This document shows, one piece after another, positions 32,118 through 59,263 of a DNA stretch of 64,000 bases (position 1 is the stretch's first letter; the number at the start of each line of letters is the position of its first letter). Source of the stretch: an uncultured virus (IMG/VR IMGVR_UViG_3300021964_000035) (Duplodnaviria > Heunggongvirae > Uroviricota > Caudoviricetes); the IMG/VR virus record IMGVR_UViG_3300021964_000035; one strand, 5' to 3'. Below the pieces are notes generated by a model. It worked only from the letters and a program-made list of their open reading frames with translations, was not told where the DNA came from and did not search any database. The position numbers and the translations under genes were made by a program.

Positions 32118-32147
32118 AAAAAAAGGGGCCGCAACGGTGACGGCCCC
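32118..32147 (-). terminator. Intrinsic terminator
   Basis: GGGGCCG/CGGCCCC stem followed by T7 on the minus strand. Confidence 0.8.
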
Positions 32148-32161
32148 TGAGACATTCCACG

Positions 32162-38031: not shown

Positions 38032-38058
38032 AAAAAACCCCGCCAATAGTAGCGGGGT
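38032..38058 (-). terminator. Intrinsic terminator
   Basis: CCCCGC/GCGGGG stem followed by a T tract on the minus strand. Confidence 0.75.
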
Positions 38059-38088
38059 CAGTGGGCTTCAAACTCAGACTAGCGACGT

Positions 38089-39482: not shown

Positions 39483-41030
39483 TCACCTTATGCAACGCTG
39501 AATGCAATCAATGCTCTCAGCTGTCTTGGTCAAGTCCACAGTGTGGACTTCGTCGCTGAACCGATTCAGAATTGGACCTGCGTCGGTCTCAATGCAGATC
39601 GTCGACCACATCGCACCGGTTCTTTCTTTCATCGCGTTGATGTTCCTGATCGTGTGATCGTGCACTTCACTGTGCCCGTCCGTGATCATCAGAATGTCGG
39701 TCTTGTCGGTGATCTTGGCCGAGGTGACTGCGTGCGCCAGTACAGCGTTGAAAGACGTACCACCTCCGAGGTGCCACGTAGCCACAAAGTCCAGCAACTC
39801 ATTGTTGTCAGTCCGCGTGGCATCCAAGCTCACTGAATCCGTAATCCGGACGTCAAACAAATGAATCTGCACACCTCGCTTCTGCTTCAAGGCCTCCTCA
39901 GCAATGAGAAGTGCAATCGCTTTGCTCCAGATTTCAGTCTCGCCCGTCATCGAGCCGGAGACATCGATGTACATGACGATCGGTCCCTTACCGAGATCCT
40001 TTCGATGCGCCTCGTAGTCTTTGGTCAGCAGGCTTCTCTGGCTGTACTTCAGGGCGAAGAGAGCGCGTCCCTGAGGCGTGGCAGCTAACGCCAGCTCATT
40101 GGGGAAAGCTTTGACCACTTCATTACTAAAGGCAGCGCCTGCAATTGCTTCGTAGCTGGCCTTTGCTCGGCGAGCTTTCTTTCGCTCTGTCCAGATCCGC
40201 CGCAAGAAACCAAGACGGTTGGCGATTGCCCTCAGCTTCTTGTTTTGGCGAAGGCGTTTTGCCAACTCACGTTTCTGATTGAGATCGTTTGTGTGCTTGC
40301 CTGTCCCAGCATCGGAGCCGTGAAGCTTGCTGATCCCTTCGTTAGTTTGCTCGGTTTCTTCCTTGGCTTTGTCGACAATCTCATCTATACGGCTGGAGAT
40401 CCTTTCACCAGCTTCCATAAGGTGCTGCTCCATGACAGCGCCAAGCTTCTTGCCCTCTTCTCGCAGCACTGCTGCAGCGCCGTCATCACCAGCGTCCTTC
40501 GCTTCTTGAAACTCCTGACGGATCTTTTCCAGCTTGTCTTTGTTGCTGCTGAGCATCGAGGGTGCCAGCTGCTCCAGGTCCTCGATCAATTCCTCAAGAA
40601 CCTCGGACAGCTCGTTCAGGATGTTTACAGCAGTGTTTCCAGCGTTCCACTGATCGCCGACGCAAAGCATCATCAAGTCGTGCCACGCTGCTGAATTGGT
40701 CAGGTCGTCCATCAGCCCGTACCAGAACGAATCTTCAGGTTTGTAGCCGCGTGGATACACAACCTTTTCCCCGTTCTGTTTTGCTCTGAAATACTCTTCC
40801 CAAGCATTCAGATCGATAAGCCAGCTGACGTTGTCGCCTGAGTAAAGACGCTCGAAAACTTCTTTCCCAAAGCGTGACAACTGGTTGATGTTGTACTGAT
40901 CGGCTAGGTAGCTGACCTGGGGCCTTGCGTCTCGAACAAAGTCGTCCCAAAGAAAATCTGCAAGTGCAGAGCAAGCCAGCGTCAAAGGCTGGTTGTCACT
41001 CAGCCTCAGGATCTCCTGTCGTTTGTCCAT
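39483..41030 (-). CDS. VWA-domain protein (ViaA-like)
   Basis: KGPIVMYIDVSGSM MIDAS; GGGTSF; MITDG. Confidence 0.88.
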   Translation of the reverse strand: MDKRQEILRLSDNQPLTLACSALADFLWDDFVRDARPQVSYLADQYNINQLSRFGKEVFERLYSGDNVSWLIDLNAWEEYFRAKQNGEKVVYPRGYKPEDSFWYGLMDDLTNSAAWHDLMMLCVGDQWNAGNTAVNILNELSEVLEELIEDLEQLAPSMLSSNKDKLEKIRQEFQEAKDAGDDGAAAVLREEGKKLGAVMEQHLMEAGERISSRIDEIVDKAKEETEQTNEGISKLHGSDAGTGKHTNDLNQKRELAKRLRQNKKLRAIANRLGFLRRIWTERKKARRAKASYEAIAGAAFSNEVVKAFPNELALAATPQGRALFALKYSQRSLLTKDYEAHRKDLGKGPIVMYIDVSGSMTGETEIWSKAIALLIAEEALKQKRGVQIHLFDVRITDSVSLDATRTDNNELLDFVATWHLGGGTSFNAVLAHAVTSAKITDKTDILMITDGHSEVHDHTIRNINAMKERTGAMWSTICIETDAGPILNRFSDEVHTVDLTKTAESIDCIQRCIR

Positions 41031-42214
41031 TAGTTTGAGATTTCGGCGATTGTGTGGGCGATTGTTTCGCTGAACTTTTCGAGCTGCCTGTTTAGCTGCA
41101 CGCCTTTTTGTCGGACTGCGATTGACATCTTGTAACGGTCGCCATCCAGTGCATCATTGACCTTCTTCTGGATGCTCAAGATGTCATTGCGAGCACGGCG
41201 ACACTGGGTGACGTAGTCGTTCAGGTCAGCCAGGGAGCGACCGCTGAGCTTTGTTGCGTTGGCCTGGAACTCAGTCATGATTCCAGAGGCAGCCCGCTTT
41301 GCATCGGCAAAGTATTTTTCAGCCGTGGGGCATACCTGCATCAAGCACTCTTTAATAGTGGCTTGATCTTCGTCGTTACGGTAAACAATGTGCACCAGTG
41401 AGTTGTGCATGTGTTCGCCATAGAGTTCTTCGTCGCCTTGGACAACTGCCCAAGCTTTGAGGAACTTGATGATCTGAACTCGCCGGCGGTCACTGATAGT
41501 CAGGCCTCGTGCTTCGAGCATTGACCAGAGCTCGCCGAACTTATCCAGGAAGTCATCGGTGACAGGCAGCGTTGCTGCTTTTGCCTGCAGCTCGAACAGA
41601 TCGCCAAGCTTTAAGTGCACACCGACGTCGGGTCTTTGCTGGATGCCTGCAGCCCAGAGATCAAGCGTGCGCTTACTGGCGCTCATCGCCAGGAACCGAA
41701 CAGTTGGGCGGAACAGGAAACGATCGGCGAAAGCTTGGAGTGATTCCTCCTCAGGCCAGCTGTTTGTGGCAGCGACGATCGACTGGATCGGCGTCTCGAT
41801 TGTTTCTTTGCCGTTGTTGAACGTGCGCTCGTTCAGAAGGGTGAGCAGTGAATTCAGGATCGCGGAAGAGCCACGAAACAGTTCGTCAGTGAACGCGATG
41901 TGCGCAGAGGGAAGGTAGCCATCGACGTCACGTTGGTACTCGTCCTTGAGGAGCTTCGTGACAGCTACAGGACCGAAGAGTTCGCTTGGGTCGCTGGTTG
42001 GCGTGAGGAGGTAGCCGAAGTAGTTGGCGCCGTCGATGCCCTTGCAAATGCTCCGGACCAGATCTGACTTACCAGTGCCGGGCTCGCCCAGTAGGAAAGC
42101 GTTTTGCTTTGAGAGCAGCGTGGCAAGCAGACCGTCGATAACATCGACGCGCTCGAGGTGCGCAGTGTTGAGAGCAGCTCGGAAGTTCTGAAGTGATTTG
42201 AAAAGATCAGTCAT
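41030..42214 (-). CDS. MoxR-family AAA+ ATPase (RavA-like)
   Basis: GEPGTGKS; PSELFGP; GYLP; FTDELF; ILNSLLTLLNER; AFADRF; ISDRR. Confidence 0.9.
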   Translation of the reverse strand: MTDLFKSLQNFRAALNTAHLERVDVIDGLLATLLSKQNAFLLGEPGTGKSDLVRSICKGIDGANYFGYLLTPTSDPSELFGPVAVTKLLKDEYQRDVDGYLPSAHIAFTDELFRGSSAILNSLLTLLNERTFNNGKETIETPIQSIVAATNSWPEEESLQAFADRFLFRPTVRFLAMSASKRTLDLWAAGIQQRPDVGVHLKLGDLFELQAKAATLPVTDDFLDKFGELWSMLEARGLTISDRRRVQIIKFLKAWAVVQGDEELYGEHMHNSLVHIVYRNDEDQATIKECLMQVCPTAEKYFADAKRAASGIMTEFQANATKLSGRSLADLNDYVTQCRRARNDILSIQKKVNDALDGDRYKMSIAVRQKGVQLNRQLEKFSETIAHTIAEISN

Positions 42215-47689: not shown

Positions 47690-48761
47690 TTAGTCTTCGA
47701 GAAGATGGGGGTAGTAATCTTTAACCTCAGCGATGACTTCTTCGTCGCTGTAGTTCTCCATGCCCGCTGCTATCTGTTCGGCAGCTAGTTGGCAAAGGGC
47801 TTTAATGTCCATGCCATCGACAATCGTCCAGGCGTAATTGTCGATCAGTTGATCACGTTGTTCGGGTGTCATAGTCAGATTCCGATTGACTTCCAGTGTT
47901 CAGAAGGTGTAACTACTTTGTACAGACTTAAAAGGTATTCGTTTGATGTACGCATCGCGCACCACTTATCCTTAGCCTGCTCAAGATCGCGAGCATAAAT
48001 ATCAATGAAGCGGCGAACAGGGCCGCCCTCAGTCCACTCGTGGTAGACAGCTTTAAACCGTTGCATGATCATTTCCTCCGGGAGTGAAGTTCGTCGGCGT
48101 AAGTAAAAGCTTGGTCTTCGTAGTAACCTTCGCGGTCAGGATTAACACCCCGCAGACAAGTAGCAGCCTGGCGACAATCCTTGATCACATACTTAAGCGA
48201 GTAGGTGTCAAGAGTCTTGGCGTGTTCGCGCCACTTAGCGAAGTCTTCGGGTGTTGCGTAATCGGGTCGCATGTTAGTTAAAGAGAGAGTCCCACAGTGC
48301 GTTAATAATGTGCTCACGAACTTCTTCGTGCTTGGTGTCACGAATAGTGCGATAGCAAGCATCACTAAAGTCGATTGATTCGACGTGCTTTAATGCAATG
48401 TCTTCGCGTGACAGTTGCAGTACTTCAGTTTCGAACTTGTTCATTGTTCTCAGTTCCAGTAGTTGCCTAAGTTGAACTCAGCTCGAAAGGAGTCTTCGAG
48501 CATCTCAGCTACGCGAGTTCGCATAGCTTTGGGGAATGTATTGCGCAGGTTCTGGCTCATCGAGCCGTGGCACAGTAGGTAATCCTTAGCGGCAGGCATT
48601 ACCAGATTGCGCTCAATAAAACCGATTGCGGTGTCTACGTTGTAGTCACCCCGTCGGTGGAACTTACTCAGACAAATGCCGATATTGTTGTAGTGTCGGC
48701 CTGAGAAGTTGCGAGCATAAAGATCAAGCTCGCACAAAGCATCTTGGTCAAAAACAGTCAT
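47690..48761 (-). other. Small early ORFs (47690-47872, 47875-48066, 48069-48272, 48274-48444, 48450-48761)
   Basis: Packed minus-strand ORFs with gaps of a few nt. Confidence 0.65.
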
Positions 48762-48879
48762 GAAAAACACCTGTAATTTGATGAAGAGGGAGAGTCCCTC
48801 AGAGAACATAATGCTCAGTGAGAGATTCTGTGAGGGATCATAAATGATCACCTACTAAATGTAGTCAAGGGGACAGTGT

Positions 48880-49411
48880 GCTCAGTTAGAACAACCCTGC
48901 CCCCTTAAAAGGGGTGGGGAGATAACCTACCCGAAAAGTAATTTCAGTGCACAAAGTACAAAGAAGTTACCTGATTCTTCTGTATTTAGTTACCCACTGA
49001 CGAGATGGGCTAACAGTTAGCGTCGCTTAGCTAGTTGGAACTTGTGCCAGCGTACCTGCATCAGAAGCAGTTACGCGGACAAGGGGTACAGGGACAAGGG
49101 GCACCGCGATAAAAGCGACACCGGCCCTGTATCTTTACAGGAATTGCGTCGGAGTCGCACGCGCTTAGCCAGGCGGGTTGCACCTGTATCGCGTTCGGGG
49201 GATCACTCGCGCCCCTGGGTCCGTGTTCTGGCGACTCAGTTATGTAGAAGTCTCGCCCTCGCGCCCGGCTGCCCGTGCCAACCCGCGCCGCGTGGTGAGA
49301 TCTCAGGTTGTCAAGGTTCGGAATTGCCCTAGCTAACTAGAGCTGAGGTCTGAGGGGAGCGGAGCGGTTGGCCTAAGGCCCAGACCGCAAGGCGCTTTGC
49401 CCTCCGACTCC
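48880..49411 (-). ncRNA. Candidate structured leader/ncRNA
   Basis: No credible ORF; about ten helices found by eye, mostly with G-U pairs only on the minus strand. Confidence 0.55.
49307..49343 (-). promoter_or_regulatory. boxB-like hairpin plus rRNA-type boxA
   Basis: GCTCTAG-TTAG-CTAGGGC, then AATTCC, then GAACCTTGACAAC. Confidence 0.55.
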
Positions 49412-49414
49412 TTA

Positions 49415-49444
49415 ATAAGAACACATAGGTGCGCCCTAAGTCAA
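49415..49444 (-). promoter_or_regulatory. Possible promoter for the leader RNA
   Basis: TTGACT-18 bp-TCTTAT (imperfect -10). Confidence 0.4.
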
Positions 49445-49944
49445 CCCCTGTAACTAGATGAACTTGGTGCGCTGGCTCAGATCCCAGTCTGTGACTGGCT
49501 TCTGCTTGAAAAATATAAATGTAACAGGCTACCCCCCTCCCTGTAGTTATATAAACTGGGTGTAATCCTGTAGTTGATATAATTATATTTAGTAATCACT
49601 ATCTATAAACTTATACCAACCCCGTACCCGGCACCCGCAATTCGCCTTTTTTTTTCTTTTCCTTCCTTACGTCGCCGCCGGCGAGAAGTATTTGGGTTTC
49701 AGCGAGGTATTTTGGGGTGAAACTTTTTCGGGTCATTATGTTGGCATGGGTTTACGAAAAAATTTCGGATTTATTTTTTCGACCCAGAAAGGCTCCTGGT
49801 GCAACTCCAGGTGAATACATGCTCATTAAGAACACGTTCAATGCGAAAAAGTGGGCAATGCTCCGCAGAGAGACGGAGCGAAACGAAATAAACCGACGCC
49901 CGTGGCGACAAAAACGGGGTCCTTACTACTGGGACTAAAGGGAA

Positions 49945-50220
49945 GTGAGCTACAAAGATCCAAAGCTCAAAGCGCAGAGCGACAAATGTGCCGCTCTATG
50001 GCGCGAGTGGAACCGTCTGTACTGGCTTTGGAGGGAAGAGGGCAACAAGATGGAGGGCTCTTGCCCTCTAAAAGTCAGAAACGACGTACTGAAAATGCGG
50101 GAGAGGTGGTGTAAGTGCTGCGATAGGACGGCTCGTATGATCTCGACGGCGGCGAAGAAGCAGGCAAGGCAAAGAGAAATCGCAGAAAGAAGACGCCGAG
50201 GACGGGGACGATCAAAGTAA
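49945..50220 (+). CDS. Basic hypothetical protein
   Basis: GTG start after AGGGA. Confidence 0.45.
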   Translation: MSYKDPKLKAQSDKCAALWREWNRLYWLWREEGNKMEGSCPLKVRNDVLKMRERWCKCCDRTARMISTAAKKQARQREIAERRRRGRGRSK

Positions 50221-50294
50221 CGCCCAGGAATCCGAGCAAAACTTCCTTCCAGACAGGTAGTGAGTGCTTGTTTCGGCGATTAGAGGTGGTCATT

Positions 50295-50669
50295 TCAGAT
50301 GTCCTCCACTTTTACGTAGATTTTTTCGGGGTGTTCGGGGAAATAGTGCAGGGTTGCGGGGCAAAGCCAACCCTTTAGGCACTCGTGAGGCGCTTTAGTC
50401 CGATCTGGGTCGTCCTGTAGGCGATACCAACCACCGCCGTGCTCGAAATCGAACTTTTCAAGGCACCCGTGGCTACCAGGGAAGTTTTCGGCAGCAAAGA
50501 TGACTCGATAGCGCGATTGACCTTGCTTGCAGTTCTTGAAAGCGACTTCATCGATGATTTCGCTCATGCCGAGTACAAACGGCTCGGCGCGTAAGTCAAA
50601 ATTTTGGTCGTCAAAGGCCCAGCAGCCGGCTTGACGGTAAACCTGGAGAGCTTGAATGGCGTTTGCCAC
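50295..50669 (-). CDS. DUF6717-like protein
   Basis: WAFDD..L..EPFVLG...FPG...GGWY...GWLCPATLHYF. Confidence 0.75.
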   Translation of the reverse strand: MANAIQALQVYRQAGCWAFDDQNFDLRAEPFVLGMSEIIDEVAFKNCKQGQSRYRVIFAAENFPGSHGCLEKFDFEHGGGWYRLQDDPDRTKAPHECLKGWLCPATLHYFPEHPEKIYVKVEDI

Positions 50670-50783
50670 GGGTCTGTTGTGATGTGATCTGCACTAAGCG
50701 TACCATGTTCTCCAGAAAGCAGGGTCTGTACGGTTTACCGGCAAAAAAATCGAATTAATATAGATAGGGGAATTCTTAGAGAC

Positions 50784-53700
50784 ATGCCTTCTCGCGATAT
50801 TTTCACTCGCAACAACATCGAGAAGGCGGCAGAAGCAATTCGTCGCGAGTGGCGCAGGGACGACCAGGCTGACAGACGTGTCCGTCAGGCGATGCTGCAG
50901 CAAGGTCTGGACGAAGAAGATCTGGATCTCCGATATCGCTTGCAGGACTACGCGTCACAGGAATTAGACGAGTACGGGGATCCCATTGATCCGGACGATT
51001 TAACCGAAGCTCAACTTCGCGAGTACGCAACGCCAGCGGAGTTTCAACGTGATATCCCGTTCCGTGGGTTTGATGTAGACCCTGACGACGAGAGCTACGT
51101 CGGCTATCGCTTAGCTAGCCAGAATCCCGAGGTTCTCGAGCTGATGCGTCAGCAAAGAGCTCCTTTAGATAGCGACGCCAAGCGAGCCTCTCAGAATCGA
51201 CTGTTCGAAGATATTCGAGCAGGTCGGGTTAATAGGCAGGACTTACGAGCAATTGCGGATTTGTCGGGGGCGAGCACTCTTTTATCCGAGAACGCCGGTG
51301 ATGATGCCGCTTACGAAGCTGCCAGTTTTATTGAGCAGCAGCGGACTGGAAACCCCCAGGCTCAAATCGGTTTCGATCTAGACGACACTGTCGAAAGTTC
51401 ACTCGAAGAAGCGAGCCGTTTCATTACTCGTCCAATGCGGGCGGCCGATGAAGTTGCAGCTGGCCAAAGACGACTGGGTCAAAACATCAACGCAGCCCGA
51501 GGCGCTGTAGCCAGAAGCAGCAATGTACTTGCTGAGGAATTTGGTCAACGAATCAATCGACTGGAAGCAGAAGGTCTTGGATTAAGTGAACCCCAGACGC
51601 TTGAGGGCGCTGAGCGGAACGCCCGGCGACTAAGGGAAATAACTGAGAGCTTGCAGAATATCGAGCGTTTAGCCTCTACCGACGCCACCCCTGCTGCTGG
51701 AAGTGATATTGATGAGCGCACTGCAATTAGAAATCGAATCCTTCCCCAGGTTCAGGAAGCCCTTGGCGAGCGTGGCACGACTCGAGCTGTTGAGGAGGTG
51801 CTCCGCCAACAACGTGCTGAGAGAAATCTCGCTAGTCAGCAACAGCGTTTAGCGGCTGATGCGCTTCGCTCAGGTCCCATCTCTCAACAGCTGGAGACGT
51901 TGGATGCGCAGTTCCGCCGTCCGATGAGCCCTCGGATTGTTGATGAACTCGAAGTTATTGACCGAGGGGTGTCGCAGTCTGGTATTCCCGGACTTTGGGA
52001 ACAGGTAGAGATCGCACGTCAGGACACTGTCGAGCGTCAAACCGAAGGAGCTCGACGAGATATCGATCGACTGCTGGACCAGTACCCCGAAGTTCGCCAA
52101 GTTTTCGAGGCATCTCCTAAATCAGACACACGTCCCCGCGCACGTGGTGGTGAGTCATCAAAGGCTTTCCGCCAATATATGGACTTTGCGCAGCAGTATG
52201 CGTCGCCTGAGGATCGTGCCGCTACTTACAACGCCGCGCTGGATCTATACCCAGCTGAGACGAAAGGGGAAATTGCTAAGCAGCTGCAGCGGATTGAATC
52301 TGACTACACAAGCGGAAATACTGCATTACAACGTGACGCTGTTGATCAGCTTTTAGCGTTGGGCGGTGATCTACCGGAGTCTGAAACTCCTGCGATTTCG
52401 CCACGTCGACCCGTCATTGGTGGCGGTCGTTATGTCTCGAGGGAAGACATCGAGCAAAATCCTGAGCTGAAGCGCCTTGTGGATCGGATCGACACGAGGG
52501 CGAAAGACATCAACCAAGCTTTAAGTCAGTTCGATCGGACAACTCTCCGTCAGTTGTTCCCAGATCAAGTTGGTTCCCTGCTCTCGTTCCCGAAGCTGGG
52601 TCTTGCTTACGACGAAAGCACGGGTCAAGTAACTGAAGTTGATCCCACGGACCGCAACGCTTACCGCGTGGAAGTCATGGGAGCCTCTCGAGGAGGTACT
52701 CCTCAGATTCAGGGCACGGAAGAGCTTTTCCAAGGTAGAAGTGCCAGGGTTTCGGAGAACGCTCTACGTTTTCTTGCCGATAATCCCGTCCTCAGGCAGA
52801 GCAGCGTCTCGTTCAAGACCGGAATACCCGGTTACGGCGTCGATTACCAAGCTGAAGCTGCCCTTCCCAAGCCGGTTAGCGACGTTTTCACGAGTTTTAT
52901 TCAGCGAGAAGCACTCAAAGGTGCAAAACCGGGCACGCTGGTCGCTAATTCGCCCCTTTCTTCAGGCGATTTGATCGACGCACGTATCAGGCAGGGTGAA
53001 ACGGAAGCAACGAGTTCGATTCTTCGCCGTCTGATGCCTTTCAGCCGTGAGGCACAAACTCTTCCCAACCTGCGCGGTGTCGCTTATCAATCTGCAGGCT
53101 TCGGTCCAACGGATATTGGAGGCGCACAGTACACCTTCATTAGTCCTGAGGGTGAAGCAATCCCCGTTCAGTTCCGTCAAAGCGAAGTTGGCCTCCGAGG
53201 AAAGGTCAAGGTGGACCCCGATGGAGCTTACGTGAGCCAAGGAGCTCTTCCCGCTAGCTCGCCACGCTACTTCTCGACCGTTGTGCCCGGTCTGGATCAA
53301 GCCACCTTGTCCCGCGTTGCTAAAAACATCCGCCGTACCCCCGCATCCCTCCTTCCTGGTGCCGCTGACCTGATCCCTTCAGCCGAAGCGGTCCGCCGTG
53401 GCTATCAAGAAGGGCCTCAAGCCCTAGCTGAACAGGTCGGACGTGACTTCGTTTCTGGCCTTCCCGTTGGAGCAGCGTCTGCAGTTGTGCTTTCCACGCC
53501 TCTAGTTGCACCGTTAGCACCTGGTATCGGCGGCGGATTGGTTCTGACCGCAGCTGGCGAGGCAGCAAACGAAGCGATCAAGCAGCAAACCGGCGAAGGC
53601 ATTGTCCCTAAGGTTCGTCAGTTCCTTGGAACCAGGGAGCGTACCGGCGTGGCTGACGAAGGAAAGACGCGTAAACCGCGTGAAGCTGTCACTCCTCAGA

Positions 53701-59179: not shown

Positions 59180-59263
59180 GCCCAGGTGATGAAATTGGTA
59201 AACATAACGGACTTAAAATCCGTCGCTCGTTTGAGCTTGCGGGTTCAAGTCCCGCTCTGGGCA
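59180..59263 (+). tRNA. trnL: tRNA-Leu(UAA), CCA not encoded
   Basis: GCCCAGG/TCTGGGC acceptor; ACGGA-CT-TAA-AA-TCCGT anticodon arm; long variable arm; GGTTCAAGTCC. Confidence 0.95.

Follow-up and report, generated by a model that had tools for sequence, protein, structure and literature searches.

The region ahead of the early gene array of this uncultured tailed phage encodes a conserved structured RNA that displays, unpaired, the boxA of cyanobacterial rRNA operons. The universal core of the RNA, which is read from the minus strand, consists of a short hairpin, a single-stranded host-type boxA and a long helix whose cap is invariant. Taken at its most modest, the finding is a new RNA family that is well supported and has no counterpart in Rfam; the catalogue in PMC10690425 (>10,000 candidate viral structured RNAs) may list it. 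On the reading that we rank first, and whose prospects we consider evenly balanced, the leader would be a nut-like, rrn-type antitermination RNA that loads host Nus factors onto RNA polymerase at the start of the operon.

Genomic position of the leader

The window, i.e., the whole stretch of 64,000 nt that was analysed, is part of the genome of an uncultured tailed phage. The leader lies within a divergent control region, immediately 5' of the first minus-strand gene, and its surroundings are as follows.

up to ~24 kb, plus strand: tail-fibre and lysis genes
48761 down to 25575 (~23 kb), minus strand: early/replication gene array with primase, DNA polymerase A, exonuclease, dCTP deaminase and a MoxR-VWA pair
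from ~49717, plus strand: second gene array
48761-48759 (ATG) and 48772-48768 (Shine-Dalgarno AGGUG), minus strand: start of the first early gene, which encodes 103 aa without a family
49582-49609, minus strand: predicted promoter P1 (TTTATA, 16-nt spacer, TATAAT), expected start ~49575

The neighbouring genes belong to no known family, and no N-like protein was recognised among them. The closest matches of the polymerase are from Pseudanabaena phages at 28% identity, and no cultured phage is close. The nearest virus record (G001) has no match to the region, and a blastn search in distant mode with positions 48700-49700 against 50,697 phage records gave zero matches.

P1 is sigma-70-like and the sole promoter-like site that a promoter scan called within 48500-50900, with 10 of 12 positions matched. 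Its -35, spacer and -10 are retained in the related lineages L086, L089, L001 and L085, where the -10 variants TATTAT and TATTCT occur. The first-pass annotation had placed the RNA at the head of the early region, and its location at the head of the leftward early/replication operon, downstream of this conserved, predicted promoter, agrees with that. Inside the array, two strong intrinsic-terminator-like sites are found on the operon strand (38059-38036 and 32148-32124), both upstream of the polymerase and primase genes.

Borders and homologs of the conserved block

Exact-word scans identified one contig identical to the window (L087), two at ~92% (L086 and L089) and two at ~83% (L001, which equals L088, and L085). 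The conserved, ORF-free block extends on the minus strand from 49344 (49391 in one lineage, L086/L089) to ~48762, with 83-92% identity across three close lineages and less conservation in both flanks. The first-pass annotation had described an ORF-free RNA at 48880-49411. A conserved RNA is indeed present there, whereas its borders have to be moved to those of the block. The region is ORF-free in the sense that only short, unconserved ORFs overlap it; small ORFs of 31, 40 and 96 aa were considered as genes and rejected, as they are unconserved and the substitutions track helices.

The 230 nt 5' of the block differ among the close lineages.

49345-49575, minus strand: 5' portion of the putative transcript, variable in sequence, with the 5' domain hairpin at 49411-49356

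Between the window and L086/L001, this part shows no sequence conservation. The 5' domain at 49411-49356, formerly taken as part of the element, thus falls outside the conserved core, and what relatives retain is an analogous hairpin, in which alignment by eye shows GGCC/GGCC replaced by GACC/GGUC and GCGGU/ACCGC by GAGG/CCUC.

At least five further uncultured phage lineages carry diverged versions of the leader; nhmmer and motif patterns located these in the same place and orientation in L034, L090, L093, L106 and L155. Fragments were found in L003, L012, L020 and L022. The 17-nt pattern GGTTRGCACGGRYAGCC occurs in 84 stretches of viral contigs; the stretches that survived the boxA-context or nhmmer filter lie in five contigs, of which two were new (L155 and L106) and three already known. 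At least 120 stretches in genome contigs contain the pattern; none passed the filter, and they are chance matches. Downstream of the same leader, the first gene is a different one in L001, L085, L090 and L106.

A covarying core

We built a covariance model, R1, of the first 205 nt of the block (49344-49140), with a structure derived from compensatory changes visible in the alignments. Searching 92 sources with R1 gave 10 matches (9 distinct), all at the expected places. In the resulting alignment, which is model-fitted, so that pair counts are inflated towards the structure, and which represents ~8 independent lineages, 94.9% of the cells are standard pairs, compared with 26.8-43.4% in controls with the 3' partners displaced by 1-3 columns; 30 of the 49 pairs have changed on both sides, and the observed values were equalled in 0 of 500 shuffles. 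Even so, the controls are exceeded by a wide margin, and R1 is a conserved structured RNA. Covariation in homologs, which the first-pass annotation had named as a check, is thus present above controls. The core contains the following elements.

49326-49343, minus strand: hairpin H1 (GCUCUAG-UUAG-CUAGGGC), 6 nt upstream of boxA
49308-49319, minus strand: boxA-like motif GAACCUUGACAA, unpaired in R1, between H1 and Module A
49247-49304, minus strand: Module A, a long covarying helix with the nearly invariant cap GGUUR-GCACGGG-YAGCC (49283-49267)
49241-49247, minus strand: D4-like heptamer CUACAUA, just after Module A; retained in the window group and L034
49152-49237, minus strand: three-way junction with closing helix GAGUCGC/GCGACUC
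49215-49197, minus strand: junction arm, hairpin GGGG...CCCC
49194-49190 with 49163-49159, minus strand: junction arm, helix ACGCG/CGCGU
49186-49170, minus strand: junction arm, hairpin CAGGUG-CAACC-CGCCUG

Hairpin H1 (R1 helix 1) is paired in 87% of the cells, and two of its seven pairs have changed on both sides. By position only, it corresponds to the boxB-side hairpin that lies directly before boxA in cyanobacterial 16S-23S spacers. Module A (R1 helices 2 and 3) starts 3-4 nt downstream of boxA and is present in all 10 matches, with 94-95% of the cells paired and 13 of 20 pairs changed on both sides. Its arms have wholly different sequences in at least five lineages, and even the cap shows a compensatory change from G-C to A-U between the window and its close relatives. 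The junction (R1 helices 4-7) is paired in 98-100% of the cells with 15 of 22 pairs changed on both sides; its ACGCG/CGCGU helix is complete (5/5) in all five rows that have it, with full compensation. An alternative alignment with MAFFT and RNAalifold that included the diverged L034 was discarded, as it aligned poorly and contained misleading long-range pairs.

All sequences quoted in the first-pass annotation occur on the minus strand where it had placed them. The long-range helices that it drew between them fared less well. The pairing GCGGGUUG/CAACCCGC is complete (8/8) only in the window, falls to 7/8 in close relatives and 5/8 in L090, and shows no compensation; the 5' arm, GCGGGUUG, is part of the covarying Module A cap, and the 3' arm, CAACCCGC, is a hairpin loop. 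CACGCG/CGCGUG keeps 4/6 pairs in L086/L089 and 3/6 in L090, whereas the alternative ACGCG/CGCGU is retained in full. The third helix, GUGUCGCUU/AAGCGACGC, is compatible with all five close rows (9/9), with G-C to G-U as its sole change, but is unproven.

Folding energy alone leaves the strand ambiguous. With the coordinates of the first-pass annotation (48880-49411), the minus strand has z = -2.14 (4/100 shuffles as good) and the plus strand z = -4.44 (0/100), whereas with conserved-block coordinates (48762-49350) the order is reversed (minus -4.64, plus -2.96). In the diverged, AT-rich homolog L034, the homologous strand has z = -8.25 and the other strand -5.33. Which strand folds better thus depends on the coordinates used. 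The comparative data settle the strand: G-U/U-G outnumber A-C/C-A by 30 to 4 in the paired cells of R1, which identifies the molecule as the minus-strand RNA and upholds the argument made from G-U pairs in the window.

The RNA had not been recognised at first sight, and database searches agree. With Rfam, the region 48600-50900 gave zero matches at E<=5, and the whole window gave only a tRNA (59180-59263) at the gathering score. Seven homologous loci searched at E<=5 gave a tRNA and two sub-threshold snoRNA chance matches, in L093 only.

The boxA of cyanobacterial rRNA operons

The motif GAACCUUGACAA is the best conserved single-stranded stretch of the RNA and is present in all 10 R1 matches, with the variants UAGACAA, UUGAAAA and UCGACAA. 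In cyanobacterial 16S-23S spacers, as printed in an excerpt of PMC8461337, a boxA GAACCTTGAAAA is followed by the D4 box CTGCATA, and the phage motif matches this printed boxA at 11 of 12 positions. The reverse complement of a box A primer for marine picocyanobacteria, as given in an excerpt of PMC9769826, starts with GAACCTTGACAAC, which is the exact form found in the window (12/12). Judged by its sequence, GAACCUUGACAA is therefore the boxA antitermination box of cyanobacterial rRNA operons. This match supports a cyanobacterium as the probable host and the earlier description of the phage as a cyanophage. The likeness of the heptamer CUACAUA to the D4 box is faint; a host variant, GAACCTTGAAAACTACATA, occurs in two cyanobacterial genomes.

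We found the 12-mer in 78 of the 101 cyanobacterial-phylum genomes sampled; its 370 matches compare with 163 for the backward control. Rfam placed it between a tRNA gene and the 23S rRNA in five cyanobacterial genomes, one of which has a further copy ~107 nt upstream of the 16S; it also occurs outside rrn in cyanobacterial genomes. At four loci in three non-cyanobacterial genomes (Roseobacter, Marinobacter and Flavobacterium), 0 of 4 were near rRNA. A 19-mer of boxA and D4 with at most one mismatch was found in 35/101 genomes of the cyanobacterial phylum versus 0/101 of the Pseudomonadota, with a backward control of 0 in both. The exact 20-mer of the printed picocyanobacterial boxA and D4 was found in 0 of the 101 sampled genomes, many of which may lack assembled rRNA operons. 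As R1 had no match in 121 cyanobacterial genomes, only the box is common to phage and host.

Among the phages, the 12-mer is exact in L089 and L155, and boxA with at most one mismatch recurs on the operon strand of related leaders. It is present in L010, L040 and L047, where the remainder of the core is absent, and in two copies in L093 and L047. The boxA of L040 is GAACCTTGAAAACTGAATAG, a variant also found in hosts. More generally, the boxA and D4 variants of hosts (among them TAGAAA, GCACC..., CTGAATA and CTACATA) are those seen in the phage lineages. The leader thus combines the sequence and the structure of a nut or rrn site, namely a single-stranded boxA of the probable host's type with covarying hairpins on its flanks. 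The TTGACA within the motif was also considered as a promoter -35 and rejected; it is followed by a -10 in no lineage, because the bases downstream covary as a helix.

The 3' half and a second regulatory module

Downstream of the junction, the core continues as a chain of local hairpins, followed by a separate module close to the first gene.

48880-49151, minus strand: 3' half of the core, made up of successive local hairpins, with 83-92% identity in close lineages
49141-49126, minus strand: hairpin CCUGUA/UACAGG
~49081-49045, minus strand: GCAGGUACGC hairpin, recurring in seven lineages
49024-49012, minus strand: hairpin GACG/UGUU
49010-48992, minus strand: hairpin GCCC/GGGU
48984-48957, minus strand: hairpin UACAGAAG/CUUC..UGUA
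48867-48906, minus strand: 3' edge of the core, hairpin AAGGGGGCAG/CUGUCCCCUU
48836-48868, minus strand: candidate second promoter/operator with TTGACT (48868-48863), palindrome TGATCATTTATGATC (48850-48836) and -10-like TATGAT (48842-48837)
48791-48829, minus strand: 5'-UTR hairpin AGA-UCUCUCA...UGAGGGA-UCU, immediately 5' of the ribosome-binding site

The local hairpins of the first-pass annotation hold in part. The GCAGGUACGC hairpin recurs in the seven lineages mentioned; CCUGUA/UACAGG is complete (6/6) in three rows and reduced to 4/6 in two. The modules of the 3' half are not collinear and their order varies among lineages. RNAalifold on the close group only, which has little power in the 3' half, found 4 of 77 pairs changed on both sides, and this half may accommodate several alternative pairings. 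The AAGGGGGCAG/CUGUCCCCUU hairpin competes with an upstream partner, CCCCACCCC (48919-48911); between L001 and L086 it shows a C-G to G-C compensation, seen in the alignment by eye and without a formal count.

At least 10 relatives retain the TGATCA pairs of the candidate promoter/operator as conserved sequence that does not covary, and the promoter scan made no call at 48836-48868. The 5'-UTR hairpin was modelled separately (R2) and has 23 matches; in the 16 rows counted, G-U/U-G outnumber A-C/C-A by 24 to 3 and compensatory changes are present. Its occurrence extends to relatives that lack the core as well as to those that have it, and to other intergenic places. Short motifs are repeated in the region, namely UAACUG (four copies, ~38-fold over background) and CUUGUC. 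Pairing of the boxA motif with the repeated CUUGUC was considered and dropped, as inspection by eye gave no consistent covariation.

Proposed function and alternatives

We rank an antitermination leader first because a host-type boxA with hairpins, a predicted early promoter and a 23-kb array with internal terminator-like sites occur together. As described in excerpts of the literature, NusB-S10 binds boxA in nascent bacterial rRNA and nucleates a termination-resistant complex, and the nut sites of lambda share the box. In the mechanism that we propose, host RNA polymerase would start at P1 (~49575) and transcribe the leader, and host NusB-S10 would bind the nascent boxA. The box and the hairpins beside it, possibly aided by NusA, NusG or a phage protein, would give rise to a fast, termination-resistant elongation complex of the rrn type. 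This complex, tethered to the RNA, would pass the internal terminators of the array and continue as far as the polymerase and primase genes. The nut sites of lambda and the rrn leaders of bacteria follow the same broad scheme. The other ~400 nt, with the three-way junction and the 3' hairpins, might serve in transcript stabilisation or processing, or offer further protein sites. We know of no test in cyanobacteria of NusB-S10 binding to their boxA motif.

A more far-reaching version is tentative, and we think it rather more apt to fail than to hold. It states that a cyanophage clade built a new class of large (~0.25-0.8 kb) processive-antitermination RNAs around a stolen host boxA. An rrn-like Nus complex would then form without a lambda-N-type protein, with the GCACGGG-capped helix and the three-way junction replacing boxB, boxC and N, and the RNA might in addition deplete the Nus factors available for rRNA synthesis in the host.

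The first-pass annotation had offered a new ncRNA or a regulatory leader. A regulatory leader fits better than a free-standing RNA like GOLLD or ROOL, and the two are not separated by the data. We consider it unlikely that the RNA is instead a free-standing, trans-acting large ncRNA, which would run from P1 to ~48930, before the second promoter region, and represent either a new class comparable to GOLLD and ROOL or a decoy that titrates NusB-S10 off host rRNA operons and shuts down ribosome synthesis. The size, the multi-domain architecture and the invariant junction and loop nucleotides would suit such an RNA, but it has no match among the large-RNA families of Rfam, and no canonical terminator was found at the minus-strand 3' edge of the core. 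The core accompanies different first genes, and the TGATCA palindromes and the 5'-UTR hairpin form a separate module between core and gene that core-less relatives also have; however, in every lineage the element has the same orientation and lies directly before the early gene array, and the compact versions in L155 and L047 continue straight into the 5'-UTR hairpin and the gene. The two boxA copies in some lineages would be in line with a decoy.

It seems improbable that the structure of the leader serves stability, processing or translation control only (e.g., as RNase III or RNase E sites), with the boxA-like 12-mer captured from a host rrn spacer or convergent and either without Nus function or repressive. 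The chain of hairpins in the 3' half, whose order varies between lineages, would fit this, as would a 5'-UTR hairpin that recurs at other intergenic places like a processing signal. A precedent for a repressive boxA is the E. coli gene suhB, in which, according to an excerpt of PMC5725501, a boxA in the 5' UTR, <50 nt from the start codon, acts through NusB/E and represses the gene. The phage boxA, too, is predicted to lie within the 5' UTR of a protein-coding mRNA; unlike that of suhB, it is ~550 nt upstream of the first gene and part of a large structured RNA. That boxA is conserved better than any other single-stranded stretch, that it is retained where the rest of the core is lost or replaced, and that its phage variants stay within the natural variants of hosts all argue against a role of the leader in stability or processing only.

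A DNA-level element (replication origin, packaging site, genome terminus or single-stranded DNA initiation signal) with the structure formed by DNA hairpins is very improbable. In its favour, the divergent control region adjoins the replication module, the repeats described above are present, G-T wobble is tolerated in single-stranded DNA too, and the reading is kept alive by a related 80.5-kb contig whose last 750 nt, beginning ~95 nt upstream of its first early gene, are repeated at its start (98.9% identity). It is weakened because the element is internal in two contigs of rated completeness 100%, where >24 kb separate it from each end, because cumulative GC skew does not turn at the site and because the strand-specific G-U bias is of the RNA type, as is the host signal boxA. 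In addition, another complete contig, the third, terminates close by and has no repeat, and RNA-library contigs cover the element (see below). A genome terminus at this site was rejected.

Comparison with known RNA elements

As an antitermination leader, the RNA would work like an element of a known kind, from which it differs in architecture, size and host group. With the rrn antitermination signal (boxB-boxA-boxC; in cyanobacterial spacers boxB, boxA and D4, as far as excerpts of the sources describe them), it shares an identical boxA, a short hairpin upstream, a D4-like heptamer and a single-stranded motif. Unlike the rrn signal, it is a phage mRNA leader rather than part of an rRNA precursor, and a helix of ~58 nt with an invariant cap lies between boxA and the D4-like heptamer, followed by ~400 nt of conserved structure.

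Processive antitermination through a boxA leader is textbook biology for lambda-like enterobacterial phages. Like nutL and nutR of lambda, as described in excerpts of the literature, the leader would be promoter-proximal in an early transcript, ahead of a long operon with internal terminator-like sites, and has a host-type boxA beside a hairpin. In contrast to lambda, an N-like protein was not recognised, and the hairpin exceeds boxB by far in length; the leader is ~10x larger, and its probable host is from another phylum. Rfam searches of the region and the seven homologous loci gave no similarity of the leader to lambda nut, in sequence or by model. The put RNA of phage HK022 consists of two stem-loops of ~65 nt without a boxA and mediates factor-independent antitermination. 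The leader would resemble it as a structured, cis-acting RNA in a phage early transcript that modifies the transcribing polymerase, whereas the leader has a Nus-type box and is much larger. Compared by description, GOLLD and ROOL share its size class, its phage location and its many conserved helices and junctions, but their covariance models gave no match at E<=5, and they differ from the leader in its fixed position before an operon and its boxA. A limited search of the literature on cyanophages, boxA and antitermination returned nothing relevant, only an unrelated qPCR paper; to the extent of these searches, such antitermination has not been reported from phages of cyanobacteria.

If the proposed function is correct, marine and estuarine cyanophages hijack the rRNA transcription machinery of their hosts through an RNA signal. 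The boxA variant of a phage would then track that of its host and could provide a sequence-based host marker for uncultured phages. The leader would also add a new large structured RNA family with a well-defined core, and offer a handle on the Nus-factor biology of cyanobacteria, which is little studied.

Coverage by RNA-library contigs

RNA-library contigs from four runs in four studies cover parts of 48929-49654, at a depth of 2-9 at which carry-over of DNA is possible; one of them crosses P1. Position 48832-48928 is covered in none of the four runs. The contigs stop at 48929, 48963 and 48977, and breaks also occur inside the core; contig ends are therefore not read as transcript ends. Contigs of two runs share the double compensatory variant of L086 (49159/60 with 49193/94), in the ACGCG/CGCGU helix of the junction. 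One contig ends at 48831, which is the start point expected from the -10-like TATGAT of the candidate second promoter.

Possible signals in and around the probable leader RNA

The conserved structured RNA, a probable leader, is rich in particular short words. Within window 48880-49350 (minus strand), UAACUG occurs four times, about 38-fold above background, and AUACAG (three copies) and CCCCUU (four copies) are also strongly enriched. CCGAAC-type words are present repeatedly across all lineages. Protein sites or tertiary motifs are possible roles for these words.

Between the leader core and the first early gene lie a palindrome and a hairpin, the latter with counterparts in related phages:

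48836-48850, palindrome TGATCATTTATGATC
48791-48829, minus strand, 5'-UTR hairpin of the GAAUC-UCUCA...UGAGGGA-CUC type, with covariation and a G-U bias
L014:8423-8509, L017:3673-3759, L031:3189-3238 and L041:3753-3799, further intergenic hairpins of the 5'-UTR type in related phage contigs

At the palindrome site, relatives carry two to four TGATCA/GATC motifs, and the sequence is kept without covariation. The TGATCATTTATGATC region resembles an operator or a site sensitive to methylation, and it adjoins a possible second promoter. The intergenic recurrences of the 5'-UTR hairpin in related phage genomes are themselves covarying and G-U-biased, and the hairpin may be a repeated signal of this phage group for processing, stability or translation.

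Features of the flanking gene arrays

Further features were found in the two arrays and beyond:

49620-49733, second conserved non-coding element, where the plus-strand array begins
39483-42214, minus strand, gene for a MoxR-type AAA ATPase (bpMoxR domain) beside one for a VWA-domain protein
38036-38059, minus strand, strong canonical intrinsic-terminator-like hairpin with a T run, inside the leftward array
32124-32148, minus strand, a second such hairpin with a T run, also inside the leftward array
59180-59263, the window's own tRNA
L093:2709-2782, plus strand, tRNA gene of the L093 lineage, about 1.1 kb upstream of the leader element and on the opposite strand

The second non-coding element is common to more relatives (L006-L013). 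Read on the plus strand, it contains one copy of GTTTCAGCGAGGTATTTTGGGGTGAAAC, whose termini look like a CRISPR repeat; a conserved ORF of 73 aa starts at 49717. Both terminator-like hairpins precede the genes for DNA polymerase and primase.

In the related contig G002 (80,498 nt; loci L297 and L300), the final 750 nt match the initial 749 nt with 98.9% identity. This repeat starts some 95 nt ahead of the phage's first early gene. It may represent a terminal repeat, or else strain variants that overlap in the assembly.

boxA-like words in cyanobacterial genomes

Cyanobacterial genomes contain 12-mers like boxA, the rRNA-operon antitermination word, remote from rRNA genes, some of them followed by NNAAATAG-type words resembling D4, the box after boxA in cyanobacterial 16S-23S spacers. 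Loci with boxA-like 12-mers include L312, L321, L322, L304 and L310; a scan of the first three found no rRNA nearby. These non-rRNA 12-mers may be a sign of Nus-factor targets beyond rRNA, or of mobile elements; boxA-like copy number reaches 16-22 in some large cyanobacterial genomes.
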